Shown: positions 819 through 40,995, counted from the stretch's first letter. The stretch is 64,000 nt of DNA from an uncultured Acidimicrobiales bacterium (GCA_938021675.1 CALIFY010000014.1:34726-98725); one strand, 5' to 3'. Numbers and translations: made by a program. Notes: a model not told the origin generated them from the sequence alone.

Positions 819-3800
819 TTGCGGATGACTTGCCAATTTCTCACAGCGCTAAGCAGCAGGTTTAGGACGTCCATCATTGTTCAAGAATGGGCTTTTGTTA
901 TTGGGGTCGTCAGGGGGAAATTAACGAGCTATCGTTCGATACCAGTGACTCAGGCATGGGAATTCCCTGACCAGAGGCACAAGCCATCCGCCGCCCTTCG
1001 AGAGTTCCTGGATCCACTAAGTCCAGGCCTCTATTTGGACTGTGGACGCGCTCGGCTTCATGGTCTCGACGACGCTCTTCTCCGCGAAGCGGTGAGTCGT
1101 GGGCGCAGTGTTGGTGATGACAGTTTCGTGCTGGTCATCACCGATGTTGGCCTCATCTACTGTCGACCCTCTATCGCCTTTGCGATAGCGGCACGCTGGT
1201 CGGAGCTCTCGATGTCGGTACTGGTCGGTGAAACCGATCCGGTGCTGCTTCCGGTGGTATGGCCACATCATGGTGAACTGGACTTCACCGTGAGTCGGCG
1301 CTTGGCCACCAATGTGCTCGATTCCTGGCACCGTGCGTCGGGCAGTCCCGATCGAGGCGTTGGTCAACCGGCCGATCCAGAGGTGAACGGCGACGAACCG
1401 ACCACCCAAATGCCGGTGGTATCGACGCCGGCAACGCCGCCTCCAATTGCCGCCACGCCGCCGATGCCATCGGCCGGGTACCTGTCTTTTGAAGACGGGG
1501 CGATCGAAAGCTACGCCGCTGGGGCGCCGACGGAAACGAGCGTTGTCGCTCAAGCGCCCGAAGCCACCGAGGTCGGCCCACAGCTCGACATCGGCCCCTG
1601 GCTGGACGAGCTGGCTCCTGGTGGTACGCCGATGCCGACGTCACCGGATGGGCGAGATTGCGTTGCCGACGACGTCGTTATCGATCTCGTCGCTCCGGCC
1701 GACCGGCGAGTCGACACTGGCCAGTCGGTGGAGAATTCGCTACGAGATGCATCGCCAACCCTTGGTTCCAGCGAGCAAACATCGACCCACCGTGAGCCTC
1801 CGCCACGAACGGAGGCGGCCGGAGCGCTCTTGGCAACCACGACGATAGAGATGACGGTTGGCCCCGCATCACCAACAGATTCGCCGCTCATCGAGCGCCC
1901 TGATTGTCCCGTTCCGACCGCCGAGGCCAGCCCCCGACAAGGGCCGGATCCGCTACGCCCTCACACCGTTTCTCCGCCCGGCCCGGTCCCCGTTTCTGAA
2001 TACCAGCCATCGTCGCTGGTGGAGCGGACAGGGCTGGCTCCACCAGCCTCGCCCCCCAGACCGGACGACGAGGCTGTGGTCGCCCCGAGTCAGCCCCACG
2101 CTGATCAAGCCAGCTCGAATGTCGCCGGTGTTGGCGAGTGGGTAGTGGACTCAACCGACCCCACCGCCGAGCAACGTGGCGATGCAGCCCACGGATTCGA
2201 ACCCTCTGTCCCATACCGGGATCCGGTCGAATCGACCAACGGCTCGACCGGATCTGTAATCGACGCTGGGCCGGCAAACCAGGTCGCCACCGGCTCCGGC
2301 AACACCGCCACCGGCTCCGGCAACACCGCCACCGGGTCCGGCAACACCGCCACCGGCTCCGACAACACCGCCACCGGGTCCGACAACACCGCCACCGGGT
2401 CCGGCAACACCGCCACCGGCTCCGACAACACCGACATCCGGGCTGAAGATGAGCAAGATGGCTGGTTCCCGACCGAGGTGCGTACTGGCCAAAACGGCCA
2501 TCACCGGAACGGATCAACCGTCGAACCTCCCGAGGGTCCGGTTGCATGCAACGGCGCCCCCCAGGCCGAGACTCGGTCAGAACCGGCCGAAGTGCCTCCG
2601 AACGGGACTGGGCCAAACGGGACTGGGCCAAACCCGCACGAAGACGGGACGGTGCCGTTCACGGCGAACCACAACGGCGTCAATCGGCATCAAGGCCTCC
2701 CAAACTTGGCTCAGGTCGTCCAACCACCGATCGGCCCACAGTCGTCCGGTCAGCCTCCAGTCAACCTGCCAACAGTCGATTCGTCGACCGTTGACCGGTC
2801 ACCGCCCGCCGAAGACCGGCAACCAACCGAGCCACCGTCGGTAGAGGAGCTTCAGTACCTGAACGTCTGGCCGACGGCCCAGGAAACTGGGAATCCGACC
2901 ACGACCACGACCACCACCTCGCCGGCCGCTGGCCGCCATGATCACCTCGATCGTCCAGCCGACGAACGGGCCGTGGCCGATCGACCAGAGCCTGGACAAG
3001 GGGAACCGTACCTATTCGATCCGCCGGCGCCGAAGGAACGGTCTCCGGAACGGGCGCTGTTCAACCTTGCGGCACCCGAGCGCCAGACGCCCGACGTCCG
3101 GCGTCGGTCGACTACGGATGGATCGGCGGTGGTCGTCGACGATTCGTCTGCGCCGGACCTCGACCAAAACACCGATAGACACCAAGAGGTCGCCTTTGCC
3201 CACTGGGGGCACAACCCCACGGAGAGCGATCGGACACCGGGCCCGCTGCCGGATTGGGGTGCGACGGAGCATCCGGTCGACGGGTCACCGGTTCGGAGTA
3301 ACGGCAACGAGACACAGCGCCGACCGCACTGGTACGTAGAGGAAGATCGAATCGACGACGTTCGACAGCACGTACCACCGCCAGTGCCAAAATCCCGCCG
3401 CTCGGTAACCAAACGAGATCGTTCCGATGAGATGACATCGAACGTTGATGCAGCGCACAACTCTCGCTCCATGACGAACGTTCCGCCCGTTCCCGAAATG
3501 ATCGCCCCGCCGTCGACCCCACCGGCCGATTCGAGGCGCAATGGATTCGACGTCGACCGCATCGTGGCCTGGCTTGGCACCCCGGCATCTTGGGTAGTGG
3601 CGCTCGTCATGCTCTCGGTGGCCATCGTGATGTTGGCAATCAGCATCATCCTCTATCGGAATGGCGACACGGCGGAAGAAGCGCTCGCCGCGTCGGAGAC
3701 GGCTACCGTCGTGAACTCGCTGGCCAGTCCGACCACGTCGGTCGCCGCCGTCGATACGGCGATACAACCGATCCCCGACGCCCCGATTAGCGACCGAAAT

Positions 3801-4884: not shown

Positions 4885-6564
4885 GTGGGTCAAGATCCAG
4901 CAACCATCACGCCGAACACGAACACGAACACGAACACGACTCGATCTTCGGAGCCGGAGAACGGATCGTTGCCGGTTCATGCCGCCATCGACCTTGGAAC
5001 GAATTCGTTTCACCTGGTGGTCGCCCGTGGACTCGCCGATGGCGGGTTTGAGGTCATCACAACAGAGAAGGAGATGGTGCGTCTTGGTCAGGGGAGCGGC
5101 GAAATGCGGTTGCTTACCGATGCGGCCATGGACCGAGGTGTCGACGCGCTCCGTCGCATGGCCGCCGTCGCTGCCACCCACGAAGCGGAAATCACCGCCG
5201 TCGGCACTAGCGCCATCCGAGAGGCCAACAACCAACGGGTGTTCATAGATCGAGTTCGTAGCGAGACGGGAATCGAGATAGAGGTTATCTCGGGCTTCGA
5301 AGAGGCCCGGTTGATTCACCTCGGGGTGCTGCAAGCACTCCCGGTCTATGAGACGCCACTGTTGCTGGTCGACATCGGGGGCGGAAGCACAGAATTTCTC
5401 ATCGGTCGCGGGTCGACGGTGTTGATGGCTCGCAGCCTCAAACTCGGAGCGATCCGGCTGACCGACGGGTTCTTCGGCGACGGCAAGATCACAAACAAAG
5501 CGGTTCGGGGATGCCGGGCCCACGTCAAAAACGTGTTGGCTGCCGCCTGCCGTGATTTCGAGCCGTTGACGCGAGAAGTCGCCATCGGGAGTTCGGGAAC
5601 CATCACCGCTATGGCCTCGATGATCGCCGCCCAACGGGGAGAGGAATGTCGCGATATGAACGGGGTGTCGTTCACCGCCGATGAACTCGGTGATGCGGTG
5701 GAACGGCTGATTGGCTCGACCTCGCAGGATCGTCGGGGAATCGATGGCCTCGACGCAAAACGGGCCGACATCATCGTGGGTGGCTCCATCCTCCTCGAAG
5801 GAATCTTTCGAGTCTTTGACCTCGACGCGATCACCGTGTCGGGATACGCGCTCCGCGAAGGGGTCTTGTTCGACCGGTTGGCCGCCCGTGGCACGTCATC
5901 TTTTCTCTCCACCGTCGATCGGTTGACCGACCTCCGGCGGGCAAACGTCCGCCGGTTGGCCCGCCAACTCGACCCCGATGCCGAACACGCCGAGACCGCG
6001 GCCCGCCTCGCCCTTCGACTTTTCGACCAAACACGCGAACTCCACGGTCTAGACCAGCAGGCCCGAGAACTGCTGGAGATGGCGGCAATCGTCCACAACG
6101 TCGGACTCTTTATTTCCCACTCCGCTCACCACAAACACACCTACTACATCGTTCGACATTCCGAGCAGCTCACTGGATTCACCGAACACGAGCGTGAGTT
6201 GTTGGCTTTGGTGGCGCGATATCACCGGAAAGGGATCCCGAGCGACAAACATGAGACCTTCGCCCCGCTGAGAAAGAAAGACAAGCGGTTGGTGCGGATT
6301 CTAGCCGGTCTGTTGCGGGTGGCTATCGGTCTCGACCGGAGCCACCGTGGCCTCGTGGCCGACGTGAGCGTGACGGGAACCGACGACGGGCTTGTGATCA
6401 CTCCGCTTGCGGCCATCGAGCCGGAGTCGGAGTCGGAGTCAATCGCAGGTCCCGACAGCACGACCGATATCGAGCTTGAGATCTATTCCGCCCAGGAACG
6501 TTCGGAGCTATTGGCCGTGGCCCTCGACGTCGATGTCGAGGTCGCTGGCACCGATAATTCGTAG
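4885..6564 (+). CDS. ppx: Ppx/GppA family phosphatase with C-terminal HD domain (exopolyphosphatase-like)
   Basis: AAIDLGTNSFHLVVAR, DIGGGSTEF, and later HNVGLFISHSAHHKHTYYIV (HD region). The start is uncertain. An in-frame TTG just before LPVHAAIDLG would place the microsatellite outside the CDS. Confidence 0.8.
   Translation: MGQDPATITPNTNTNTNTTRSSEPENGSLPVHAAIDLGTNSFHLVVARGLADGGFEVITTEKEMVRLGQGSGEMRLLTDAAMDRGVDALRRMAAVAATHEAEITAVGTSAIREANNQRVFIDRVRSETGIEIEVISGFEEARLIHLGVLQALPVYETPLLLVDIGGGSTEFLIGRGSTVLMARSLKLGAIRLTDGFFGDGKITNKAVRGCRAHVKNVLAAACRDFEPLTREVAIGSSGTITAMASMIAAQRGEECRDMNGVSFTADELGDAVERLIGSTSQDRRGIDGLDAKRADIIVGGSILLEGIFRVFDLDAITVSGYALREGVLFDRLAARGTSSFLSTVDRLTDLRRANVRRLARQLDPDAEHAETAARLALRLFDQTRELHGLDQQARELLEMAAIVHNVGLFISHSAHHKHTYYIVRHSEQLTGFTEHERELLALVARYHRKGIPSDKHETFAPLRKKDKRLVRILAGLLRVAIGLDRSHRGLVADVSVTGTDDGLVITPLAAIEPESESESIAGPDSTTDIELEIYSAQERSELLAVALDVDVEVAGTDNS
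4914..4937. repeat. Hexanucleotide microsatellite (GAACAC)x4
   Basis: gaacacgaacacgaacacgaacac, read directly. It sits 37-60 bp upstream of the prmA start and inside the 5' end of the longest ppx ORF, where it would encode NTNTNTNT. Confidence 0.95.
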
Positions 6565-6596
6565 CTGGCGGCGTGCCCTTTGGCGCTACCGAGGAC

Positions 6597-7250
6597 CTAC
6601 AGGCCAAAGCGTTCGAACGGAAAGTCGATCAAGGTGTCGAGCACCGCATCGGCCGCCGAGAAATCACTGGCCGCGGTCACCCGGTTCGGCACGACAACGC
6701 AGGCCATGCCGGCGGCCTTCGCCGCCGCTACCCCGTTGTAGGAGTCTTCGATGACCACGCAGGCCGACGGGTCGACCCCGAGGCGTTCGGCGGCCACGAG
6801 GAACACGTCGGGCCATGGTTTGGCGTTCGTGACGTCGTCTCGGGTGGCGAGAACCGAAAAGCGATCGATGATGTCTCGTTCGGTCAGATGCCGCTCGACC
6901 CATCGAAGCGGGGAGCTGGATGCCACCGCTACCGCTCGTCCGCGGCGGTCGGCACCGTCGAGCACGTCGAGAACGCCGAGGCGGAGGTCGGTGCCGGCAA
7001 TCATGTCGGTGTGGGCCCGCCGCCGCCTGGCCCGAATCTCCTCAATGTCATCCCTGGGCCCCAGCTCGTCCTGAAGTTCGTCGCTCCAGTGCCGGTGGTC
7101 AGCCCGACCGACCTTCAACCGAAAGTCATCCAGTTTGTAGTCGAGACCATGCCGCCGGAACTCTTGGCGGACGGTGACAAACTCACTCCATTCAGTGTCG
7201 ATAATGGTGCCGTCAAAATCGAAGATGATGGCCGTCGAGCGGTCGTTCAT
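6597..7250 (-). CDS. HAD-IA family hydrolase (beta-phosphoglucomutase-like)
   Basis: The DxDG motif IIFDFDGTIIDTE is followed by later HAD motifs (VAVASSS, VVIEDSYNGVAAAKAAGM). The start overlaps the upstream stop as ATGA. Confidence 0.8.
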   Translation of the reverse strand: MNDRSTAIIFDFDGTIIDTEWSEFVTVRQEFRRHGLDYKLDDFRLKVGRADHRHWSDELQDELGPRDDIEEIRARRRRAHTDMIAGTDLRLGVLDVLDGADRRGRAVAVASSSPLRWVERHLTERDIIDRFSVLATRDDVTNAKPWPDVFLVAAERLGVDPSACVVIEDSYNGVAAAKAAGMACVVVPNRVTAASDFSAADAVLDTLIDFPFERFGL

Positions 7251-7948
7251 CGCGCCGCTCGGTCGGCGGCGATCTGTTCCGCCATCGTGTCGAGCGTTGC
7301 TTTCCGGAATCCCGTCATCGTGCGTTCATAGGCGCCGCGGTCGAGCGACGTCAGGAGGGTCGCCTCTTCAATCGCCGTGTCCACCACGTGTTCTGGAGCC
7401 ACAACTCGGTCGAGGAAGCCGGCGTCGAGGGCTCCGGCCGGATCGGTGATCCTGGCATTGGCGATCGCTCGCTGGATATGGGTGTTGCTGAGCCGTTCGC
7501 GGGCGATCGTGTGAGCCCAGCCGGGCAGCGTCAATCCTATGGCCACCTCGTTCAGCCCGATTTTGAACGGACCATCAGCCCCGATCCGCACATCGGAACC
7601 GAGGAGCATCAAGGCGCCGCCGGCGATGGCGTGGCCGGTACAGGCGGCAACGACGGGAATTCCGCAACCGTACATGGTGCGGACCAGCTCGCCCCCGGCG
7701 GCCACCATGCCGACGATGGCCGCCATGTCGCCGGACTTGAAGACGTCGAGGTCGAACCCGGCCGAGAATCGACCGGCCCGTCCGACGATGACGGCTGCCG
7801 CCACCGACTCGTCGGCCTCAGCGGTAGTTAACGCGTCGCCAAGGGCGGCGATCATGGTCGACGACAGCGCATTGGCTTTGCCGTCGTCCATCTCGATCAC
7901 CGCGATGGTTCCGTCGCCCGCCGCGCTCGTTCGTACGTATTCGGTCAT
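7247..7948 (-). CDS. Enoyl-CoA hydratase/isomerase (crotonase) family protein
   Basis: Crotonase fold motifs (VIVGRAGRFSAGFDL, ACTGHAIAGGALMLL). I moved the start to ATG 7948 (MTEYV...) because the longer ORF to 8278 overlaps ogt and its extra residues look non-coding. Confidence 0.75.
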   Translation of the reverse strand: MTEYVRTSAAGDGTIAVIEMDDGKANALSSTMIAALGDALTTAEADESVAAAVIVGRAGRFSAGFDLDVFKSGDMAAIVGMVAAGGELVRTMYGCGIPVVAACTGHAIAGGALMLLGSDVRIGADGPFKIGLNEVAIGLTLPGWAHTIARERLSNTHIQRAIANARITDPAGALDAGFLDRVVAPEHVVDTAIEEATLLTSLDRGAYERTMTGFRKATLDTMAEQIAADRAAR

Positions 7949-8031
7949 GCCCAGAAGATAGCGGCCGACACGTCCGAGCCCCATTCGCCGCTGGTAGCGA
8001 CCGGGGGTGTAGCCGGACCCGAAATCTTCGG

Positions 8032-8583
8032 TTACAGGGCCAATCGATTCTCCGATGATTCGTGTTGCAAAAGCCAGCGTTTGATGTCGAGGCCGTAGTA
8101 GTACCCGCCGAGAGACCCGTCTCCACGAAGGGCCCGGTGACAGGGGACAATCGGAGCGATCAGATTTCGGCCGCAGGCGCTGCCGACGGCCCGGACCGCT
8201 CGGGGATTGCTCGTCGAGCGGGCCAGATCGCCATAGGTTCTGGTTTCCCCGGGCGGGATGTTGCGAAGACCCTGCCACACCTCTTGCTGAAGGTCGGTTC
8301 CGGCCTGGGACACCGGCAGATCGTCGAGGGCGGCGATGTCACCGTCCAAGTACCGAACGATGGGGTCGTCGAGCAGCCCGAGATGGTCGACGGAGCGGAG
8401 CGGGTGGCGAGACGGCTCGGGAACACGGTTCCAGAGGTCGTCGGGTGGGCAGAAGCCTGCGGCGACGACCACGTCATCGGAGGCCAAGACGGACAGCGGG
8501 CCCACCGGGGTGTTGTAGCTGCAGGAGTCGATGCTGTTGTCACTCATGATGTTCGTTTCTCGTTTCGTGTATCGAGTGGTCAT
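8032..8583 (-). CDS. ogt: Methylated-DNA--protein-cysteine methyltransferase
   Basis: Active-site PCHRAL plus the helix-turn-wing region YGDLARSTSNPRAVRAVGSACGRN. ATG 8583 directly abuts the ada-alkA stop (TGACATG). ATG 8547 is an alternative start. Confidence 0.85.
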   Translation of the reverse strand: MTTRYTKRETNIMSDNSIDSCSYNTPVGPLSVLASDDVVVAAGFCPPDDLWNRVPEPSRHPLRSVDHLGLLDDPIVRYLDGDIAALDDLPVSQAGTDLQQEVWQGLRNIPPGETRTYGDLARSTSNPRAVRAVGSACGRNLIAPIVPCHRALRGDGSLGGYYYGLDIKRWLLQHESSENRLAL

Positions 8584-8584
8584 G

Positions 8585-10126
8585 TCACGCCGGATCGAGG
8601 TCGGACGTCGCCCAGAGCAGCAACGCGGCGTACGCCCGCCACGGTTGCCATCCCTCAGCGCGACAATCCAAGTCGGTGACTGTGACATCGCCGAACGACT
8701 GCCGAAGGACGAGATCTCCGCTCGGCCAACCGTCCGGGTTGCTCAGCGCTCGCATGGCGATGTATCCGGCGGTCCAGGGCCCGATGCCGGGAATTTCCAG
8801 AAGGGCCGGTATCTGTTCGTCGATCTCGGCCGCCGGACCGAGATCGATCCGGCCCTCGGCCACCGCCTCAGCAATAGCCCGAACCGTCTGCCGGCGGCGA
8901 CCGGGAACACCGAGTTGTTCGAGCGGAGCGTTTGCCACTTGGGCTGCGGTCGGGAATCCGTGGTGGACGATCGGTCGATGACCCTCGGCCCCAGTTTCCG
9001 CGCCGGCCGTTTCCGCGCCGGTGGGGGATTCTTTTGGTTCGGTCCCGGTGGCCAACGTAACCAGTTTCGACAGGGTCGTGCAGGCTGCGGCGACGCTTAC
9101 CTGTTGGCCGATGATCGCTCTGATCGCCACTTCGAACCGGTCGAAGGCTCCGGGTAGACGGGGTAGCGGCCGTCGATCTAGTCGGCGGGACAGTTCAGGG
9201 TCGGTGGCCAGGTGAGCCGCTATCGGTTCGAGATCGGTGTCGAGATCGGCAACGGAGCGAACGAGCCCCACCAAATCGGCCAGCCGATCGAGCCGATCGA
9301 GCGAGCATCGAATGGTCAGTCGGTCGTCGTCCTCGGTGCCCCGGAGTTCGACCTGGCCGCCTGGTACGCCTCGACGGAAACCGGTCTCGTTTGCTGATTC
9401 GAGTCCTCTGATCGCCCTGGTCGATAGAAAGCGATGAAGATCGGTCCAGCGGACCGGGCCGCGGCAGGGGAGGGTGATGGTCAGATCGGTTTTGCCGGTC
9501 GGCGCGGCGTCCGGCCGTCGTCGAAGGTCGGTTGGCGTCGCTCTGAAGGCGGACCGGAACCCGTCGTTGAATTGTCGGATGCTGTTGAAGCCCGAGGCGA
9601 ACGCAATGTCGGTGATGGACAGGTTCGTTTGGTCGAGAAGAAGGCGAGCCAGCGAGAGTCGACGGGTCTGGGCGAGCTGGATTGGTCCAGTCCCCAGTTC
9701 CTGCTTGAGTTCTCTACGGAGATGCCGTTGACTCACCCCAAGTTGGGCAGCAAGGCCAACGACCCCATCTCGGTCCACAACCCCTTGTTGAATCAAACGG
9801 ACTGCCCGACCGGCCAGATCGGCCCGTCGGTTCCACTCCGGGTGACCGGGAGCGAGTTCCGGTCGGCACCGTCGGCAGGGCCGAAAGCCGGCTTCGGAAG
9901 CGGCAGCGGCGTGAGCAAAGAAGCGCACGTTTGTCGATTTTGGTGTTCTAGCTGGACAAGATGGTCGACAGAAGATGCCGGTCGATGTGACGGCGGTAAA
10001 GAATCTTCCGTCGAAACGAGCGTCTCGCTTGCTGATGGCCTGGTAGCAGGCGCCGTGATCGAGATCTGGAGGCACGTAGGAGACCTTACCCCTGGTCAGA
10101 AGAATGTTCTGGCGGAAATCGGACAC
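8585..10126 (-). CDS. Ada-type Zn-finger / AraC HTH / AlkA (HhH-GPD) fusion: methylphosphotriester-sensing regulator plus DNA-3-methyladenine glycosylase II
   Basis: Ada Zn-binding signature FFTAVTSTGIFCRPSCPARTPK...GFRPCRRCRPE. Next comes an AraC-type HTH (ITDIAFASGFNSIRQFNDGFR), then an HhH-GPD region (IPGIGPWTAGYIAMRAL). Confidence 0.85.
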   Translation of the reverse strand: MSDFRQNILLTRGKVSYVPPDLDHGACYQAISKRDARFDGRFFTAVTSTGIFCRPSCPARTPKSTNVRFFAHAAAASEAGFRPCRRCRPELAPGHPEWNRRADLAGRAVRLIQQGVVDRDGVVGLAAQLGVSQRHLRRELKQELGTGPIQLAQTRRLSLARLLLDQTNLSITDIAFASGFNSIRQFNDGFRSAFRATPTDLRRRPDAAPTGKTDLTITLPCRGPVRWTDLHRFLSTRAIRGLESANETGFRRGVPGGQVELRGTEDDDRLTIRCSLDRLDRLADLVGLVRSVADLDTDLEPIAAHLATDPELSRRLDRRPLPRLPGAFDRFEVAIRAIIGQQVSVAAACTTLSKLVTLATGTEPKESPTGAETAGAETGAEGHRPIVHHGFPTAAQVANAPLEQLGVPGRRRQTVRAIAEAVAEGRIDLGPAAEIDEQIPALLEIPGIGPWTAGYIAMRALSNPDGWPSGDLVLRQSFGDVTVTDLDCRAEGWQPWRAYAALLLWATSDLDPA

Positions 10127-10193
10127 GGCAGTTTCGAGTAGCTGTGTTCGGGAAACGTCAAGGGGGCGGCCGAGGTCGGTAGGGTCGTTTCAT

Positions 10194-10772
10194 ATGTCGG
10201 TCGTCCGATTCCCGTCCCGTCGAGCGGCGATCGTCACCTTGGTCAGCGGGGCGCTGGCACTCGGTTGTACATCCGAGGAACCCGAGCCCCAGGTGGTGAC
10301 GATTCGCCAGATCACCGAGGACCTGATCAGTGAGAACGTCGCTGATCAGGCTGGCCTTGGCCCTCTGGCACCGACCTGTCCCGATGTGACCGTCGCTGGC
10401 GTTGGCACGGAGTTCGAATGTTCGGCCACCACAGAATCTGGAGCTGTCGTATCGCTGGCGGCGCTGATCAACAACGACGGCAAGGTCGAACTTTCCACCA
10501 CCAACGTCATCACCGTCGCTGCGCTGCCTAGCTTCGAGCGGGCCGCGGTCGAAGCGTTGAACGCCAACGATCCGACCCTCGGGTTGTCGGGTGACGCGAT
10601 GGACTGCGGAATCGAGCCCATCGTTTTTCCCGTCGAACAGTCCGACGGGAAAACGATGGTCTGTGGCGTTGTCGATCCCGACACCAGCGAAGTCTTCGAC
10701 GTGACGTTCAACATCACCGATATCGAAGAGCGACAGTTCAGCGTTCAGGTCGCAGAAGCGCCGCGTTCCTAG
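10194..10772 (+). CDS. Lipoprotein with two Cys-pair repeats (DUF4333-like)
   Basis: Lipobox LALGC follows MSVVRFPSRRAAIVTLVSGA. Two similar modules each carry two Cys. The start was moved to ATG 10194. The family call is from memory only. Confidence 0.5.
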   Translation: MSVVRFPSRRAAIVTLVSGALALGCTSEEPEPQVVTIRQITEDLISENVADQAGLGPLAPTCPDVTVAGVGTEFECSATTESGAVVSLAALINNDGKVELSTTNVITVAALPSFERAAVEALNANDPTLGLSGDAMDCGIEPIVFPVEQSDGKTMVCGVVDPDTSEVFDVTFNITDIEERQFSVQVAEAPRS

Positions 10773-34539: not shown

Positions 34540-34857
34540 ATGCGGCCATTGGGCATCAGAATTTGGTTAGTGGCGGTGGCGGGAAGTCTGCTGCTGGCCG
34601 CCTGCGGGGTCGATGAGCCAACCGACTTCACCGCCGACAACCGCAGCGGTTTTATGGCCGCCTGCACCCGCTCGCTCGATGACACCCAACTGGTGACCGA
34701 CGTGTGCCGGTGCGTGTTCGCCGCGACCTCCGACGAGCTTTCGTTTGTCGAGTTTTCGTCCATCGACCGTCAGCTTCAAGAGAACCCCGAACAGGAGCTC
34801 CCGGAAGAAGTTCTCGACGTCATCGCCGAATGTGTCATCGAGGTTGGCGAGCTCTGA
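34540..34857 (+). CDS. Small lipoprotein, unknown function
   Basis: MRPLGIRIWLVAVAGSLLLAAC lipobox. The start was moved to ATG 34540. Confidence 0.5.
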   Translation: MRPLGIRIWLVAVAGSLLLAACGVDEPTDFTADNRSGFMAACTRSLDDTQLVTDVCRCVFAATSDELSFVEFSSIDRQLQENPEQELPEEVLDVIAECVIEVGEL

Positions 34858-34897
34858 ACAGGCGGTGGTTGGAGGTGGTGGAGTAGCCTCGGTGGCG

Positions 34898-36076
34898 ATG
34901 ACCGACGCCACTTCCGCTTCACCCGGCGAGACGACCGTTCCCCAAAAACCCCGTTGGACGTTCCAGTGGAAAGAGCTGTACGACGAGGTCATCACGTCCG
35001 GGTTGTGCACCGGCTGCGCGGGGTGCGTGATCGCCTGCCCGCACGACGTGATCGGCTACGAACACAAACCGGGGGCGTATACCCCATTTCACTTGGAAGA
35101 AGAGTTGGGGCTGGCCAACTGTGTGCACGGTGAAAAGGGCTGCACCTCGTGCACCAGGGCGTGCCCCCGTTTCCGGTCTTGGGAGACCGAAGCCGATGAA
35201 CACCTCTTCGGACGGGTGAGAGAGCCGAGCGAAAAGTCGGGCATCTACAAAGACATCCTCCTCGTGCGGGCAACCGACGATCGGATTTACGAGAATGGCC
35301 AGGACGGTGGGTTGGTGTCGGCCATCCTGATTTGGTGCCTTGAGAACGACATCATCGATGGTGCGTTGGTGTCGATGTTGGAAGGGGGTGCCGGCGGCTG
35401 GAAAGCGATCCCCGGGGTGGCTACCAATATCGAAGAAGTTATGGCATCGGCCGGTAGCCGGTATACCTACTCGGCCAACACCATGGCGTTCGACGAGGCC
35501 CGAGACCGGGGCTTGGACAAACTGGCGCTCGTCGGGATGAGCTGCCAAACATCGATTGGCCCGGTGATGTGGCACCGAAAGGTGGGGAAGGTCTCGAAAC
35601 CCATCAAACTCAACATCGGGTTGTTGTGCTCAAAGTCGTTCGATGACTCGATGTTCGACGAACTTTTCTATTACAAATATGGGCTGGCCAAAGACGACAT
35701 CGTAAAGATGAATATCAAGGGGGTGTTCCAGGTATGGATGCGAAACGGCGACTACCACGAGATCAACCTTAAGGAATGCCACGCTTGGACACGAGAAGGG
35801 TGCAATCATTGCCCCGACTTTGCTGCTGAACATGCCGACATTTCCACCGGGGGCATCGGAAACGAGACGGACTGGACGTTGACTGTGGTTCGAACTGACC
35901 TGGGTCGGGCCGTCATCGATGCCATGATCACCGACGGCGTGGTCGAGACCCGACCCGGTGACGATGATCCGGCGGCTATAGCGCTCATGCACCGCCTGGC
36001 CGAGAAGAGCAGGCAGCGATGGCCGGCGTGGGCAAACGGCGAAGCGCGGGTTGGTCTGTCGCCGAAGAAGGCGTAG
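34898..36076 (+). CDS. FrhB/FdhB-family (coenzyme F420 hydrogenase/dehydrogenase beta subunit-like) Fe-S flavoprotein
   Basis: N-terminal ferredoxin-like CTGCAGCVIACP. The C-terminal region has CNHCPDFAAEHADISTGG, typical of the FrhB C-terminal domain. The start was moved to ATG 34898. Confidence 0.65.
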   Translation: MTDATSASPGETTVPQKPRWTFQWKELYDEVITSGLCTGCAGCVIACPHDVIGYEHKPGAYTPFHLEEELGLANCVHGEKGCTSCTRACPRFRSWETEADEHLFGRVREPSEKSGIYKDILLVRATDDRIYENGQDGGLVSAILIWCLENDIIDGALVSMLEGGAGGWKAIPGVATNIEEVMASAGSRYTYSANTMAFDEARDRGLDKLALVGMSCQTSIGPVMWHRKVGKVSKPIKLNIGLLCSKSFDDSMFDELFYYKYGLAKDDIVKMNIKGVFQVWMRNGDYHEINLKECHAWTREGCNHCPDFAAEHADISTGGIGNETDWTLTVVRTDLGRAVIDAMITDGVVETRPGDDDPAAIALMHRLAEKSRQRWPAWANGEARVGLSPKKA

Positions 36077-36102: not shown

Positions 36103-36759
36103 TTAGCCCTCGGCCGGCTGGCCGACGATCGCCGTGATCTCGGCAACGTCGCCGTTTTGGATGGCGTTTCCTGCTCGGCCTTTTGCCTCGAATTCTGAGG
36201 CATTCCACTCTTCGGCGAGGGCGAGGAGTTGTTCGTAGTTGTAGCCGGCGTCCCAGTATGCAGCGTAGGCGTCGAGGTCATCCTCGTTCCAGCCGTCGGG
36301 AGTCGCCGTCGGGGGTTGGCCGACGATCGCCGTGATCTCTGCCATGTCGCCGTTTTGGATGGCGTTTCCTGCGCGGCCTTTTGCTTCGAATTGTGAGGTG
36401 TTCCATTCTTCGGCGAGGGCGAGGAGTTGTTCGTGGTTGTAGCCGGCGTCCAGGTATGCGGCGTAGGCGTCGAGGTCATCCTCGTTCCAGCCGCTCATCG
36501 GGTCGATACTCGTTGGGGTCGAGGATCCGGTACCGGAGTCCTCGTTGACGGTCGGTGGTTCGTTAGGAGCGGCTGGCTCGGTTGTTATCGTCGGCTCAGA
36601 CGCCAGGGTGACGCCGGCAAAGCCAACACCGACCACGGTCACCGCGGCAACGGCGCCGTAGGTCAGACGTTGCCGGCTCCGGCGACGTCTGGCATCGATG
36701 TCATAGATCTCTTCGAGGCTTGGCGGCGGTAGTTCGGTGTTGTCGGCAGGTCGTATCAT
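36103..36759 (-). CDS. Membrane-anchored protein with 2 x ~60-aa novel repeat module; putative anti-sigma/sensor partner of the adjacent ECF sigma
   Basis: The ATG overlaps the sigma stop (ATGA). The cytoplasmic tail is about 30 aa. One TM helix (LTYGAVAAVTVVGVGFAGVTLA), a Pro/Thr linker, then two copies of GWNEDDLDAYAAY.DAGYN.EQLLALAEEWN.S.FEAKGRAGNAIQNGD.AEITAIVGQP. No classical anti-sigma domain was recognised. Confidence 0.65.
   Translation of the reverse strand: MIRPADNTELPPPSLEEIYDIDARRRRSRQRLTYGAVAAVTVVGVGFAGVTLASEPTITTEPAAPNEPPTVNEDSGTGSSTPTSIDPMSGWNEDDLDAYAAYLDAGYNHEQLLALAEEWNTSQFEAKGRAGNAIQNGDMAEITAIVGQPPTATPDGWNEDDLDAYAAYWDAGYNYEQLLALAEEWNASEFEAKGRAGNAIQNGDVAEITAIVGQPAEG
36115..36492 (-). 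repeat. Two tandem ~180-bp coding repeats (period 198 bp), paralogous to 38357..38782
   Basis: Copies at 36115..36294 and 36313..36492. There are long identical DNA runs with the second locus, for example the 36-mer gaggagttgttcgtagttgtagccggcgtcccagta at 36223..36258 and at 38474..38509. Confidence 0.9.
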
Positions 36760-37280
36760 CGCTGCTCTTCCTCTTCGGCCGTAAGTGCATCTCGTAGTCG
36801 TCGTCTTGCGTTGCTTAGCGTGGCCGAAGCTGAGCCGGCGCTGGTGTTCATCTGCGCCGCCACCTCGGCCTCCGACAGTTCGTCCCAGTAACGCAGTTGT
36901 ACGGCGGTCCGCATCCGATCTGGAAGATCGTTGACCAATTCGACAACCGAATCGAGCCCGTGGCCTTGGATGGCGATGTCTGGCTCATCGATCTTCGTTG
37001 GCAAGCGGCCTTGTTCGATCTTGGCGATAGCCCGTTTCTCGATTTGTCTTCGTCGCCACGCTCGTCGGGAGAGATTGATAGCGGTACGAAAAACCCAGCC
37101 CTCGGGCGACTCCATCCGACCAACACGGCGCCACTTGGCATACGCCCGGGCAAAGGCCTCGGCCGCGAGCTCGCGACCGAGTACCGGGTCGCCGACCTGC
37201 TGGGCGATGCGCCTTGATAGTGGCTCGGCAACATCGGCGTACCAGCTCTCGAATGAGAGTTCGCCATCCGAAGGGGTCAT
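36756..37280 (-). CDS. ECF (sigma-70 family group 4) sigma factor
   Basis: Region 2 (ELAAEAFARAYAKWRRV...GWVFRTAINLSRRAWRRR) and region 4 (DLPDRMRTAVQLRYWDELSEAEVAAQMNTSAGSASATLSNARRRLRDAL). 174 aa. Confidence 0.85.
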   Translation of the reverse strand: MTPSDGELSFESWYADVAEPLSRRIAQQVGDPVLGRELAAEAFARAYAKWRRVGRMESPEGWVFRTAINLSRRAWRRRQIEKRAIAKIEQGRLPTKIDEPDIAIQGHGLDSVVELVNDLPDRMRTAVQLRYWDELSEAEVAAQMNTSAGSASATLSNARRRLRDALTAEEEEQR

Positions 37281-37294
37281 CGGTTCGAGATGAT

Positions 37295-38326
37295 TTACGG
37301 TAGAGCTCGTTTGAGTTCCTCCAAGCCGGCAAGGATCTGTCCAGGGTTGTCGGCGCCGGGCAGGATCCGGATCTCGACGGTGTCCTTAGTTCGAGCGCCC
37401 TTCCTGAGGTTGACGAGGTTCAGATCGCAATACTTGGTCAGCGGAATGGTGCGCAGCCACATCAGCACCTCAGGCCAGGACCGATCGGTGAAACCCGGTT
37501 GACGGACACCATCGACCAACTCTGGGGGTAACGGCGATAACCGACGGCAAGCCTGGTTAGTGCCGAGCGTAGACCACAGCGCATCACGTTCAGAGAATAA
37601 CTCGATCAATCGGGCCAGAGCCGGCGCGGTTCGAAACGGCTCCGCGTCGAGATGGATATGAACCGCAGCCTCGGCTGGGATCGTGAATCCAAGATCTCTG
37701 GCCGGGCCGAGCAAGGCTTCGAGTGCGTCCTCGAAGCTGCCGGTCAGCGGCGGGGTGACGATCTCGCAGACCCGCTCTCGTTCGCCACCTTGGGGAGCAA
37801 TCATTGCGATGGTGTCGCCACCTCGATCGTCGAGGCGGAATCGGTTCCCGTCAAGAGCTTCCACCGCCGAGCCGAACGCAGCCGCCATTGGTCCTAGCAT
37901 CGACTCGGCGGATGCGGTCGGGTCACAGATTTGTTGTGCCAACCGAAGGAGGCGGGGTTCATCACTCAGGATCCGAAACCACCCCGGCTCCGGCATTTTG
38001 TGGATGTCGAGATCGGTGTTGATCGTGACGTCATCGACGAGCCGACAACGCATCGCACCGTTGGCCTCGTCAACTTCAAACCCACGGGTGAGGTGATGAA
38101 AAACTGGACGGCCTTCCACCAACGATGGTTCGGCATCGTGGTGGAAGACCGTCCTGATCGACCCTCCACACTGTTCGGCGAACTCTTCGGCCAGCGTGTG
38201 CCGGCTGGCACCGGACGGTGCGAGAAGTTCGACCTCGAACCCCAGCCGGTCCCAATGGCCGGTACGGGCTGGGTGGTCCGACCATGTGACGGTGTCGGAC
38301 TGGCGTGGAGTGTCAGATGTTGCCAT
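37295..38326 (-). CDS. Amidoligase_2-type (glutamine-synthetase-like COOH-NH2 ligase fold) enzyme, substrate unknown
   Basis: Ordered motifs match the putative-amidoligase family as I recall it: LGFEVELLAP (GxExE strand), VCEIVTPPLTG, AAVHIHLDA, KYCDLNLVNL, TVEIRILPGADN. No signal peptide or TM helix. Confidence 0.6.
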   Translation of the reverse strand: MATSDTPRQSDTVTWSDHPARTGHWDRLGFEVELLAPSGASRHTLAEEFAEQCGGSIRTVFHHDAEPSLVEGRPVFHHLTRGFEVDEANGAMRCRLVDDVTINTDLDIHKMPEPGWFRILSDEPRLLRLAQQICDPTASAESMLGPMAAAFGSAVEALDGNRFRLDDRGGDTIAMIAPQGGERERVCEIVTPPLTGSFEDALEALLGPARDLGFTIPAEAAVHIHLDAEPFRTAPALARLIELFSERDALWSTLGTNQACRRLSPLPPELVDGVRQPGFTDRSWPEVLMWLRTIPLTKYCDLNLVNLRKGARTKDTVEIRILPGADNPGQILAGLEELKRALP

Positions 38327-38344
38327 GTGGGTGTGGGATATGGG

Positions 38345-38923
38345 TCAGCCGTTGGCCGGTTGGCCGACGATTGCGGTGATTTCGGTGATTTCTGTGGTGT
38401 CGCCGTCTTGGATGGCGTTTCCTGCTCGGCCTTTTGCTTCGAATTCTGAGGTGTTCCATTCTTCGGCGAGGGTGAGGAGTTGTTCGTAGTTGTAGCCGGC
38501 GTCCCAGTACGCGGTGTATGCGTCGAGGTCGTCTTCGTTCCAGCCGTCGGGGGTGTCGGGTGGTGGGGGTTGGTCCGGTCCTGCTGGTTGGCCGACGATT
38601 GCGGTGATTGCGTTGATTTCTGTGGTGTTGCCGTCTTGGATGGCGATGCCCGCTCGAGCCTTCGCCTCGAAGTTCGACGTGTTCCATTCGATGGCAAGAG
38701 CCTCAAGCTGTTCGAAGCTATAGCCGGCCATCCAAAAGGCCGCGTAGGCATCGAGCGTGGCCTGATCGATATCCATGCCCTCCACGTTGATGAGAGGGGC
38801 CGGGTTCTTGGCGGTTGGCGTGTCGTCGGGAGTTTGGGCCAGTGCCAGACCGGAAACCGCACCGGCGACGGGAAAGGCCAGTGCTGAGGCAGCGGCGAAC
38901 TTCAGCTTTTTGGAATTGAGCAT
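38345..38923 (-). CDS. Secreted protein with 2 x the same ~60-aa novel repeat module
   Basis: Sec-type signal MLNSKKLKFAAASALAFPVAGAVSGLALA|QTPDD (start set at ATG 38923, SD gaagga). It carries two modules homologous to those of 36103..36759. Confidence 0.7.
   Translation of the reverse strand: MLNSKKLKFAAASALAFPVAGAVSGLALAQTPDDTPTAKNPAPLINVEGMDIDQATLDAYAAFWMAGYSFEQLEALAIEWNTSNFEAKARAGIAIQDGNTTEINAITAIVGQPAGPDQPPPPDTPDGWNEDDLDAYTAYWDAGYNYEQLLTLAEEWNTSEFEAKGRAGNAIQDGDTTEITEITAIVGQPANG
38357..38782 (-). repeat. Two tandem coding repeats paralogous to 36115..36492
   Basis: Copies at 38357..38545 (close to the 36-kb copies) and 38585..38782 (more diverged). There is a 9-bp EIT duplication in copy 2. 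Confidence 0.9.
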
Positions 38924-39012
38924 TGGCAGCGGTCCTTCTGTAGGGAACACCTAAAGAAGCCTCAGATGCATCGGTTCCCTTAGCCGCGGCCGGATTATTC
39001 TGATGGTTGTCG

Positions 39013-40341
39013 CTACTCGTTGGCCGTGGCGACGATCGGGGAGGTGGCGGCGGTAATGACCGAGCCGGTCTCCGAGGCGAACGCGGTGGTGACGCCGATC
39101 GGGGTGCCATCTACTCGTTCACCGAGATGGTTCGTTACCTGGCAGGTGCCATCGTCGTTGATAACCAGAACGGTTCCGCAGTAGTCGGGCATGTCCTCAA
39201 CCGATTCTCCAAGCACGATGAGGCCCATCTCGTTGTTCTGAACCGATTCGTGGGAGAAGCCGGCTCGCTCGAAGTGCAAGAGGCCGTCGGCCAGAGCGAC
39301 GCAGTACCCGGTGCTGTCCGTCGGGAACAGCGACGGCGGAAGTACCGATGTCCACTTCCAATCCTCGACGAGGTTCTTTGATGTGACGATGGAGAATTCG
39401 AGATCGCCGAGCACCGAGAGAGCTGCGAGAGATAGCACCGCCGAGCGAGCGGTAGCCAACGCTGCCGAACGGCTGCCGACAATTCCGAGCGGACCATACA
39501 GCAAGTTGGCGGTCACCGGAACCCAGGGCAAGAAGCTCATGTTCTCGATCGGTTCGTACAGCTCTTCTGGTATCTGCTCAGGCTCGTCGAACCGGGGCTC
39601 CCAGGGAATGGTGCAGTAGGCGACAGCGAAACGGCCGAACAACGGGTGGTCGACGCCCCGTTCCCACAAGCCTGGTTCGAGTCGGCCGAGCCTGGTCCGT
39701 AGTTCCTCGGGATTGGGGTGGAGTAGGCGGTGGCGGTCGGCGGTGGCGTTTCTGGTCTGACGGATCGATTGGAGAAACGCCCAGGCCTGGGCGTTCAATT
39801 CTAGGTCGCTTGTTTCGCTGGTCTGCCGGGAGAACAATGAGCTGAGGAACGAGTCGCGGCCGGACCCGGTCGTCTGTTGGTCTTCGATGAAACTCGGGAC
39901 TTCGATCGCCGGTGTCGGTTGACGGGCCGCTTCGATGGTGGCGACGATCGAAGCGGCTGTGGCCGGTGGGCGGGGAGGGCGCACGGTGAAGCAGGCGCTC
40001 CCGACGTGGAGCACAGACTCACCGATCGGCATGGCTTCGGTCACCGGCGCTTGATCGACGAGTGCGTCGACCGAACCAGGAACCACCATGACGGTGTCAA
40101 CGTCTTGGACCGCCAACGAAAATCCAATGTCCCGGTCGGACTCGCGGAATTGGAACAACCCGGAGTGAAGTGGCATGACGGTTCCAGATGTCAACCCTGC
40201 AACCTGCCGCATCTCGAGCAGCACGTCGGCAGGGGCGCCATCGGTGGTCGCCGCATCGTCGCCGTTTTGAAACGGCGGTGCAGTCGGGTCGAGAGAGAAG
40301 TCATCCATCTCGGGATTGGGTGCGATTGCTGGATCGTTCAT
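39013..40341 (-). CDS. Hypothetical protein: FHA-like beta-rich N-region plus degenerate FtsK/SpoIIIE-like domain (Walker A lysine absent)
   Basis: Start moved to ATG 40341 (MNDPAIAPN...). YGPLGIVGSRSAALATARSAVLSLAA...LEFSIVTSKN...VLPP lines up with the FtsK-family pattern PH.LvAGtTGSGKS...L..l...l.liDpK...lPH, but it lacks the GKS/T. No TM helix was seen. This is pattern recognition only. Confidence 0.4.
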   Translation of the reverse strand: MNDPAIAPNPEMDDFSLDPTAPPFQNGDDAATTDGAPADVLLEMRQVAGLTSGTVMPLHSGLFQFRESDRDIGFSLAVQDVDTVMVVPGSVDALVDQAPVTEAMPIGESVLHVGSACFTVRPPRPPATAASIVATIEAARQPTPAIEVPSFIEDQQTTGSGRDSFLSSLFSRQTSETSDLELNAQAWAFLQSIRQTRNATADRHRLLHPNPEELRTRLGRLEPGLWERGVDHPLFGRFAVAYCTIPWEPRFDEPEQIPEELYEPIENMSFLPWVPVTANLLYGPLGIVGSRSAALATARSAVLSLAALSVLGDLEFSIVTSKNLVEDWKWTSVLPPSLFPTDSTGYCVALADGLLHFERAGFSHESVQNNEMGLIVLGESVEDMPDYCGTVLVINDDGTCQVTNHLGERVDGTPIGVTTAFASETGSVITAATSPIVATANE

Positions 40342-40995
40342 CCAACGGACAATTCTACGCGGTTCTCGAAGCTGATCCTGACCCAGGAGGAACAAGGAGG
40401 GTCGTCGGGGGTGCGCATGGTGTCTAGTCGACCACGAATCGAAACCGGACGGTAATCCTACGGTTGGTGATGACCCGTTCCAGGTGTCGACCCGAGGGGG
40501 TCTATGGCCGGCTTGTCGCCAAGATCGAAGCCCTTCTCGGTCGTGTCGCGTCATACCTAAGTTCGCCATCGGTTGGCAGCCGGCGCCCCGTCTCGCCGGG
40601 CCCGGAAAGCTGCAGCCCCGGCTCATGGCCACGATCTCGAGGGAACCGATCGTGCAGTTAGGGAGGGATGACTCCTGGCAAGGTTTGATGTTTGAGGCCA
40701 ACCGGTGGTGGGAATACTTCATTAGTACGTTCCTGCGAGTCGCCGGTCACGGTAGATGACGGCCACTGCTTGAGTGGTAAGTGCGAGTCGCTAGCGAAAA
40801 ACGAGAACCTGGTAGTTGGAGCCTCAAAGTGACTCTGGCCGTGGATAACGGGCTTCCATCGCAACAGCCGGTTGAACCGTGAAGGCCAACCCAAAAGACC
40901 CGGCCCGTCGGTTTTTGGTACTGGCTCTGTCGAGAAACTCTGGCTGTTGCCCAGATGCTGCCAAGAGCCGAGACGACCCCGAGCAGGAAGTGTAG

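Follow-up and report, generated by a model that had tools for sequence, protein, structure and literature searches.

Which function unites an extracytoplasmic function (ECF) sigma factor, a membrane-anchored repeat protein, an exported protein carrying the same repeat and an amide-forming ligase in one compact gene cassette? The question is raised by positions 36103 to 38923 of a 64,000-nucleotide stretch of DNA from an uncultured Acidimicrobiales bacterium (GCA_938021675.1 CALIFY010000014.1:34726-98725), the whole of which is referred to here as the window. The cassette consists of four minus-strand open reading frames (ORFs), all of which are recovered by ORF calling exactly where a first-pass annotation of the window had drawn them. 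That annotation put the sigma factor at the centre and treated the secreted protein, a tandem repeat of a module of about 60 residues, as its accessory. Comparison with relatives reverses this hierarchy. Judging from its occurrence across phyla, the pair of module protein and ligase is widespread and is the old core, to which the ECF sigma factor and a module-bearing anti-sigma-like protein are an actinobacterial addition. The four genes in the window form one operon, built on this older two-gene unit, behind a putative ECF-type promoter of its own.

The evidence for an old core comes from searches with the module and with the ligase. An exhaustive search of cluster representatives with a module profile, which replaced a word-indexed profile search (46-residue module alignment) that had given 10 short fragments, yields 724 representatives. 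The top 147 are all built from modules only, in 2–9 copies and without any other fused domain, and each possesses either a signal peptide or a tail followed by a transmembrane segment. A cysteine-containing module subtype stems from non-actinobacterial contigs; in the two cases looked up an Amidoligase_2 gene lies 25–34 nt downstream, and in an alphaproteobacterial (Maricaulis) locus the module and ligase genes form a divergent pair. A scan of metagenomes with a ligase alignment spanning several phyla (44–52% identity) provided 80 loci with GC contents of 35–76%. Where the ligase gene is flanked by 1.5 kb or more on each side (34 loci), a module ORF adjoins it in 31 cases and lies about 700 nt away in one more; over all metagenome loci the module ORF is positioned upstream on the same strand 34 times, downstream 25 times and divergently 11 times. 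A hydrophobic N-terminal segment of the signal-peptide type is present in 69 of the 70 N-terminally complete module proteins of this set. Only a few of the metagenome loci, with high GC content, contain a sigma factor gene, and no third conserved gene was found around the pair. Fusions of ligase and module are absent from the 120 listed ligase homologues and from the top 150 module proteins. Because the pair is kept across phyla without the sigma factor, and without a third conserved gene, module protein and ligase are regarded as the old core of the system.

Module proteins without a signal peptide are encountered rarely. At L169 (3413–5229) the module gene has a stop codon 15 nt before its ATG, which leaves no room for a signal peptide, so that the module protein and the ligase, whose start the module gene overlaps by 4 nt, would share the cytoplasm. 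Another such protein adjoins the ligase gene at L130 (4234–4662). The protein P0167 at L170 (5915–7843) comprises 642 residues with nine modules and a coiled-coil-like N-terminus, and likewise has no signal peptide; no Amidoligase_2 gene is found within 6 kb, and its neighbours are uncharacterised genes encoding 190, 229 and 306 residues.

The regulatory addition is evident from a second set of 85 ligase loci, made up of 80 scan loci taken from one-genome-per-species contigs, five look-up loci minus L003, and the window. Stop-to-stop ORFs were searched with the four window proteins, an iterated hidden Markov model of the module and an iterated sigma factor profile. A separate homology search with the membrane protein had yielded only 19 proteins, mostly a signal peptide followed by two modules. 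With S denoting the ECF sigma factor, M a module protein and L the ligase, the gene set stays together while its order permutes. A module-repeat ORF directly adjoins the ligase gene at 82 of the 85 loci, and an ECF sigma factor is encoded in the cluster at 74. The order M-L-S-M, as in the window, is found at 14 loci and occurs in Promicromonospora, Cellulomonas, Sanguibacter and Humibacter as well as in metagenome-assembled genomes of the Acidimicrobiia type. In three metagenome-derived genomes (L001, L002 and L004) the same four genes in the same order are embedded in unrelated flanks, which establishes the synteny of the cassette in relatives. The order S-M-L characterizes 55 loci in Micromonosporaceae and others. 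In these, the sole module protein is encoded directly after the sigma factor, which is the usual position of an anti-sigma factor, and consists of a tail of about 45 residues (LRxAFxxHExLAPDxxxV...RRRR), a transmembrane segment and 2–5 modules; a separate secreted paralogue is missing from all 55. The pair M-L was seen at eight loci (Kineosporia, Egibacteraceae and others) in which a sigma factor was not found, several of these contigs being short or truncated, and at three loci in Acidimicrobiales the ligase gene stands alone after CsoR- and CopA-like genes. The order S-M-L-M is observed once, at L008 (4131–7871), with a sigma factor, a secreted four-module protein, the ligase and an anti-sigma-like protein; sigma factor and presumed anti-sigma factor are split there by two other genes, with all four still together.

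All-against-all clustering of either locus set disclosed no third gene conserved across clades, be it an exporter, a transporter, a peptidase or a second enzyme; neighbours confined to one lineage are a rhomboid gene (L086), CsoR/CopA genes (L018, L019 and L084) and RimK/GNAT genes (L003). The rhomboid intramembrane protease gene at L086 directly follows the module-ligase pair (2377–3444) on a contig of 72% GC and is a single case. At L018, L019 and L084 the ligase gene, at about 5940–6970, has no module gene nearby and comes right after genes for a CsoR-like repressor and a CopA-like P-type ATPase, both named from sequence motifs only; these neighbours may indicate a connection with copper or metal stress, or may be a coincidence within one lineage. 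L003, from a Cellulomonas sp. (5392–10252), contains an orphan two-module protein (P0016, 8001–8591) without an Amidoligase_2 neighbour, flanked by a RimK-type ATP-grasp ligase (6159–7103), a DUF4126 protein and a GNAT acetyltransferase. RimK-type ligases and GNAT acetyltransferases are other amide-forming enzyme classes, and the arrangement could mean that a non-orthologous enzyme has replaced the ligase, or could be due to chance.

In the window the genes are spaced by 18 nt, 14 nt and finally a 4-nt ATGA overlap, which bears out the operon-like nature of the cassette. No internal sigma-70-like promoters were found in it, terminator-like sites occur at chance level, and its GC content is that of the surroundings. 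The motif AAGGGAWY-N14-CTYSTY is found once in the window, on the minus strand, compared with 0.04 expected occurrences. It is also present once in each of six relatives (L001, L002, L004, L005, L006 and L010) and absent from 165 other loci scanned. L006 seems to be a duplicate of L002, with identical ORF matches, and the position of the motif was examined in the other five relatives, where aligned or extracted upstream regions place it before the first module gene; in these five and in the window it reads TAAGGGAAY-N14-CT(T/C)(C/G)T(C/T). A bipartite motif at this place is what is expected of an auto-regulated promoter of an ECF factor. The motif would function as a promoter and is presumably read by the sigma factor of the cassette itself. 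Its position would have all four genes read from one ECF-type promoter, in agreement with the earlier proposal that the ligase is under sigma factor control. The motif ends at 38954, placing the transcript start at about the GTG at 38950, so that the ATG at 38923, which is preceded by AGAAGGA, is the likely start codon of gene 1. Cassettes of the Promicromonospora/Cellulomonas type have GACTCCACA-N16-CGTCTTA at the same place, before the first gene. In the S-M-L loci (L013–L083) the sequence TGCACA-N~17-CGTC precedes the sigma factor gene, about 40–60 nt upstream of its GTG start, and is strongly conserved in about 50 Micromonosporaceae and related loci. These clade differences match two subfamilies of the sigma factor, which share 28–30% identity. 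The features of the cassette are collected in Table 1.

Table 1. Positions of the cassette features in the window
Feature	Coordinates	Strand	Basis
Gene 1, exported two-module repeat protein, 192 aa	38345..38923	-	ORF; homologues mostly signal peptide and two modules
Gene 2, Amidoligase_2-family (glutamine-synthetase-like) ligase, 343 aa, without signal peptide	37295..38326	-	ORF, PF12224
Gene 3, ECF sigma factor, 174 aa	36756..37280	-	Sigma70_r2, r4_2, Sigma70_ECF, TIGR02983
Gene 4, single-pass membrane protein, putative anti-sigma/sensor, 218 aa	36103..36759	-	ORF; start overlaps sigma stop (ATGA)
Signal peptide of gene 1, residues 1-29, MLNSKKLKF...GLALA/QT (cleavage before QT)	38837..38923	-	Read from sequence
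Secreted protein module 1	38585..38773	-	Repeat alignment; ~73% DNA identity to other three copies
Secreted protein module 2	38357..38545	-	Repeat alignment; 90-92% DNA identity to both sensor modules
Cytoplasmic tail of gene 4, residues 1-31, conserved PPSLEEIYDIDARRRR	36667..36759	-	Sequence and alignment with relatives
Transmembrane segment of gene 4, residues 32-53	36601..36666	-	Read from sequence
Sensor module 1	36313..36492	-	Repeat alignment
Sensor module 2	36115..36294	-	Repeat alignment
ECF-type promoter motif AAGGGAAC-N14-CTTCTT, putative	38954..38981	-	31 nt upstream of gene 1 ATG

The product of gene 3 contains only the sigma-2 and sigma-4 domains and with its length falls within the range of ECF (group 4) factors (about 170–200 residues). 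Its Pfam matches exceed the respective cut-offs (Sigma70_r2, 25.8 bits, cut-off 24; Sigma70_r4_2, 43.7, cut-off 25.7; Sigma70_ECF, 22.8, cut-off 21.1), as does the NCBIfam match to TIGR02937 (56.6 bits, cut-off 42.9). The best NCBIfam match is the actinobacterial SigE-family model TIGR02983 (E=2.4e-30), with 105.6 bits below its cut-off of 141.55. The protein shares 48–60% identity with the sigma factors of L001, L008 and L010, and 28–30% with those of the S-M-L loci, which have a classic SigE-family sequence.

The product of gene 4 starts with 31 residues including the stretch RRRRSRQR, followed by the hydrophobic segment, a Pro/Thr-rich linker and the two modules. The modules probably face outward, because the transmembrane segment has its positive charges on the N-terminal flank. 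The N-terminal motif PPSL(E/D/G)EIxxIxxRR and the position of the gene are kept in L001, L002, L004, L008 and L010; in the counterparts from L001, L002 and L004 the transmembrane segment is kept as well, and the modules are far more divergent. The tail shows a weak N-terminal match to NF038083 (CU044_5270; E=7e-4, 19.4 bits against a cut-off of 100). The ATGA overlap with the sigma factor gene, an adjacency that is repeated in L001, L002 and L004, is typical of a sigma/anti-sigma pair, and suggests that the gene 4 product is the anti-sigma factor.

The ligase is assigned to Amidoligase_2 (PF12224) with clear significance (E=5.1e-13, 49.9 bits, cut-off 22), its residues 27–326 aligning with positions 4–229 of the 245 in the model, and the family assignment of the first-pass annotation thereby holds. 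The search gave 639 homologues with PF12224 annotation, and among the 120 matches listed most have about 50% identity or more; hosts include Actinoplanes, Krasilnikovia, Kineosporia, Humibacter and Acidimicrobiia, and the nearest locus is L006 (an Acidimicrobiaceae metagenome-assembled genome, 61% identity). Fourteen residues are invariant across 20 orthologues (E31, E33, H62, D64, E66, R183, R185, E188, H223, H225, D227, R232, E318 and R320), and the corresponding motifs ExE, HxDxE, RxRxxE, HxHxD and ExR are invariant across phyla as well. These acidic, histidine and arginine residues would have metal- or ATP-binding and catalytic roles. The AlphaFold2 model has a predicted local distance difference test (pLDDT) score of 90.9. 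A Foldseek comparison with the PDB gave human glutamine synthetase as the best, weak match (E=0.019), followed by McsB (E=0.25), and comparison of PDB sequences with the ligase profile gave chance matches only. The fold match agrees weakly with a glutamine-synthetase-like (GS-like) fold of the model, and the weakness of the matches indicates that no close ligase structure is known. GS-like COOH–NH2 ligases including Amidoligase_2 were reportedly defined by Iyer et al. in Mol Biosyst in 2009; to our knowledge no member of the present clade has an assigned substrate. The gene 2 product is predicted to be a cytoplasmic ATP-dependent carboxylate-amine ligase.

The module comprises about 60 residues in the window and about 45–60 over the wider set, and forms tandem helical units joined by Pro-rich linkers, with 2–9 copies per protein. 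Its core consensus is xAFxxAGYxYxDAxxLAxLWx(5-9)AKxxAGxxLLxGxxLP; in 49 diverse copies the tryptophan and the lysine are invariant and the Gly-Tyr pair nearly so. In the AlphaFold2 model of the gene 1 product both modules have pLDDT values above 90 and contain four short helices each. The exported nature of this protein is supported by a signal peptide with a basic n-region, a hydrophobic core and a cleavage-type site (ALA-Q), as read from the sequence. The module could not be equated with any characterised domain. Six module proteins from three clades have no Pfam match at E≤1, NCBIfam offers no meaningful family for the repeat proteins, with sub-threshold matches only, and PDB sequences matched the module profile only by chance (cytochrome c). 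A Foldseek search of the PDB with the two-module model gave nothing below E=2.7, a search of limited power given the flexibly linked domains and disordered regions. Weak matches to lasso_cyano, EHN and YcaO in the repeat proteins were discounted as short and below cut-off. The layout of the module proteins resembles that of ligand-binding or wall-binding repeats. Like LysM, PG_binding_1, CW_7 and SPOR, the modules are small folded units (about 45 residues) with conserved aromatic residues, arranged in 2–9 tandem copies with Pro-rich linkers in exported or anchored proteins. Comparison with Pfam profiles and PDB folds gave no match between the modules and any of these families, and wall binding would be by analogy only.

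Repeat alignment substantiates that the secreted and the membrane protein in the window carry the same module in two copies each. At the DNA level three of the copies, namely the two in the sensor and the second one in the secreted protein, are 90–92% identical, with about 73% for the first secreted copy. The protein identity between secreted and sensor modules is 70–87% in the window, in contrast to 26–42% in the nearest relatives that share this gene order. This difference points to recent, lineage-specific gene conversion between genes that lie 2 kb apart in one operon. The near-identity of the modules, taken earlier as a feature of the system, is therefore peculiar to the lineage of the window.

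The cassette is bordered by genes that appear to be unrelated to it. Downstream, a convergent gene (34745–36076, plus strand) encodes a protein like the beta subunit of F420-reducing hydrogenase/dehydrogenase (FrhB_FdhB_N/C, E=2e-29) with an N-terminal 4Fe-4S ferredoxin part, and is unrelated to the cassette. Upstream, an ORF of 569 residues on the minus strand (39013–40722) has no Pfam family, and its residues 318–469 show a weak match, far below cut-off, to the N-terminal region of the type VII secretion proteins EccC/EssC (E=3.8e-9). Membership of this gene as a fifth component was weighed and dismissed, since relatives carry unrelated genes at that place.

The reading tentatively preferred here, with a somewhat less than even chance of being correct, is a regulatory loop in which an anti-sigma factor of the receptor type governs an amidating enzyme of the cytoplasm. 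In this loop the membrane protein would be the anti-sigma factor, holding the sigma factor by its short conserved tail and exposing its modules outward as the receptor. The modules would bind an extracytoplasmic ligand. This may be an envelope component or polymer that receives amides on its carboxylates from the ligase while still a precursor, or a compound from outside that is conjugated by the ligase after entering the cell. A change in ligand occupancy would inactivate the anti-sigma factor and release the sigma factor, which would then transcribe all four genes from the motif at 38954–38981; the motif and its position are observed, and its use by the sigma factor is presumed. The output would be more ligase, the probable effector of the system, and more secreted module protein, which would bind the same ligand outside and close a homeostatic loop. 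A loop of this kind accounts for the location of the proteins in two compartments, for the lack of a dedicated exporter, for the S-M-L loci without a secreted paralogue, and for the loci with only a ligase or only a module protein.

Several observations weigh against such a loop. No recognisable anti-sigma domain (class I ASD/ZAS, RskA, FecR, DUF4179 and similar) is detected by Pfam, or above threshold by NCBIfam, in the gene 4 protein or in its relatives. The first-pass annotation had already described about 30 cytoplasmic residues and no classical anti-sigma domain, and the count of 31 agrees with it; with so short a tail, binding of the sigma factor is assumed. Since the two sigma factor subfamilies are only 28–30% identical, the coupling of a sigma factor to the module/ligase pair may have arisen more than once. 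The ligase genes that follow CsoR- and CopA-like genes have no module partner. Furthermore, the invariant lysine of the module is equally predicted by a model in which the module protein is itself modified, and the module proteins without a signal peptide that adjoin a ligase gene at L169 and L130 fit direct contact between enzyme and substrate better.

That model, the main rival of the loop though considered doubtful, makes the module protein itself the substrate of the ligase. An amino acid, an amine or an acyl group would be attached to it by an amide bond while it is still in the cytoplasm and has not yet been exported by Sec or inserted into the membrane. In every module the target would be the invariant lysine or else a conserved acidic residue, so that the modules would be carrier or acceptor domains and the anti-sigma form would be a reporter of its own modification state. 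Lipoyl and biotinyl domains, which serve LplA and BirA, and LysW, which serves LysX, are analogous carriers. The model agrees with the one-to-one pairing of the genes across phyla without a third conserved gene, with their often tight coupling (a 4-nt overlap at L169, 18–35 nt elsewhere), with the invariance of Lys and Trp in the 49 diverse modules, with the chemistry of the PF12224 class, which joins carboxylates to amines, and with the signal-peptide-less module proteins, which would be cytoplasmic like the ligase. However, more than 95% of the module proteins are Sec-exported or membrane-anchored and the ligase is cytoplasmic. The modules are, moreover, predicted to be folded helical domains rather than disordered peptides, so that modification would have to precede both folding and export. 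Ligase-only and module-only loci exist, and an S-M-L system would modify just its own sensor, unless the sigma factor has distant targets. A more elaborate version, in which the module is a new protein-borne acceptor, the ligase loads the invariant lysine in the cytoplasm, the loaded protein is exported and, in Actinomycetota, the loading state of an anti-sigma factor with the same modules is read to control the ligase, is judged unlikely. Two related possibilities were rejected or not supported. A precursor and ligase of the RiPP (ribosomally synthesized and post-translationally modified peptide) or graspetide-like type does not fit, because the enzyme is GS-like instead of ATP-grasp, the modules are folded four-helix units with pLDDT values above 90, and the proteins have Sec-type signal peptides or anchors. 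Tagging of the Pup/PafA type is not indicated either, as the ligase matches PF12224 only and a Pup-like C-terminal GGQ/E is not present; the module proteins end variously (GQPANG, LGQD, LLSA and others) and carry signal peptides.

The first-pass annotation had regarded the secreted paralogue as a ligand, decoy or homotypic partner of the sensor. In such a scheme the secreted protein would bind the sensor ectodomain module to module, as a co-anti-sigma factor, decoy or anti-anti-sigma factor, the ratio of secreted protein to sensor would set the activity of the sigma factor, and the ligase would be a member of the regulon. The presence of the same module in both proteins and their location behind one promoter are compatible with this, as are the 70–87% identity (about 90% in DNA) at which gene conversion has kept the modules of the window. 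In the closest relatives with the same order, though, this identity drops to 26–42%; 55 of the 85 loci have sigma factor, sensor and ligase but no secreted paralogue, which rules out that a partner of this kind is essential to the sigma switch; and the pair of module protein and ligase is widespread without sigma factor or sensor. The scheme as a whole is accordingly held to be improbable. Far less probable still is the absence of any specific link, with a sigma/anti-sigma pair that regulates unrelated genes elsewhere, and with ligase and repeat genes that just happen to adjoin it or belong to a mobile or defence island. The case for this reading is circumstantial, in that the roles of all components are predicted ones and the sigma factor may have further targets outside the window, but synteny excludes a chance neighbourhood: the set is conserved in permuted order and with different flanks across orders of Actinomycetota, and a conserved putative promoter precedes the first cassette gene. 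A mobile-element or defence-island origin was rejected on account of the GC content, which is like that of the surroundings, the absence of PADLOC matches to the repeat proteins, and PHROG matches that are marginal. Of the earlier reading as a whole, the cassette and the family assignments stand and the placing of the ligase under the sigma factor is supported, whereas the central position of the sigma factor and the essential homotypic partner do not.

The receptor-type loop preferred here can be compared with known systems. In the sigV-rsiV-oatA operon of Bacillus subtilis the anti-sigma factor doubles as the receptor, and the enzyme transcribed with it acts on the envelope by modifying it. 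By analogy, the cassette combines an ECF sigma factor, a putative single-pass anti-sigma factor whose ectodomain would be the ligand receptor, and an output enzyme in one operon with a conserved putative promoter before it. It differs in that the sensor ectodomain is a novel tandem helical module instead of the RsiV fold, the tail, 31 residues long, contains no anti-sigma domain that can be recognised, an ATP-dependent amidoligase predicted to be cytoplasmic takes the place of a membrane acyltransferase, and a secreted paralogue of the sensor domain is co-expressed in addition. The second parallel is the SigE family (TIGR02983), the best NCBIfam match of the sigma factor, in which the adjoining single-pass protein also has an arginine-rich juxtamembrane tail; against this, the score of the window sigma factor lies below the family cut-off and its identity to the S-M-L sigma factors is low. 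The ECF re-classification attributes shared putative single-pass anti-sigma factors to the clade of ECF38, ECF39, ECF51 and ECF222, to which the SigE family belongs, and its main text makes no mention of an amidoligase or module context (Casas-Pastor et al. 2021, PMC7826278). In the literature no paper was found that links any such ECF group to an amidoligase or to the module, that joins an amidoligase with an ECF or anti-sigma system, or that treats PF12224 beyond phage annotation. Like PafA with Pup and LysX with LysW, the ligase may have a dedicated small-protein partner encoded beside it; unlike these, the partner is exported and consists of several modules instead of being a cytoplasmic tag or carrier, and the ligase is not an ATP-grasp enzyme. 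The control of an ECF sigma factor by a single-pass anti-sigma factor is a known regulatory principle. The sensor module, the short tail, the enzymatic output and the cross-phylum module/ligase pair are, as far as checked, undescribed, in line with the earlier statement that no such system is known.

ECF sigma factors are among the most abundant signalling devices of bacteria, and for most groups signal and output are unassigned. The system described here offers a sensor domain not represented in Pfam or NCBIfam and without a solved relative, together with a defined enzymatic output in the sigma factor's own operon. The occurrence of the module/ligase pair without a sigma factor in many phyla makes its chemistry separable from the regulation, and the partner protein that is almost always encoded beside the ligase provides a handle for finding the substrate. 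Culturable hosts for genetics are available in Actinoplanes, Promicromonospora, Cellulomonas, Kineosporia and Sanguibacter. If the module is an acceptor domain, the system would represent a so far undescribed route of post-translational modification tied to ECF signalling. More generally, if the ligase modifies envelope precursors or the module, the cassette would define a new pathway of envelope homeostasis or protein modification.

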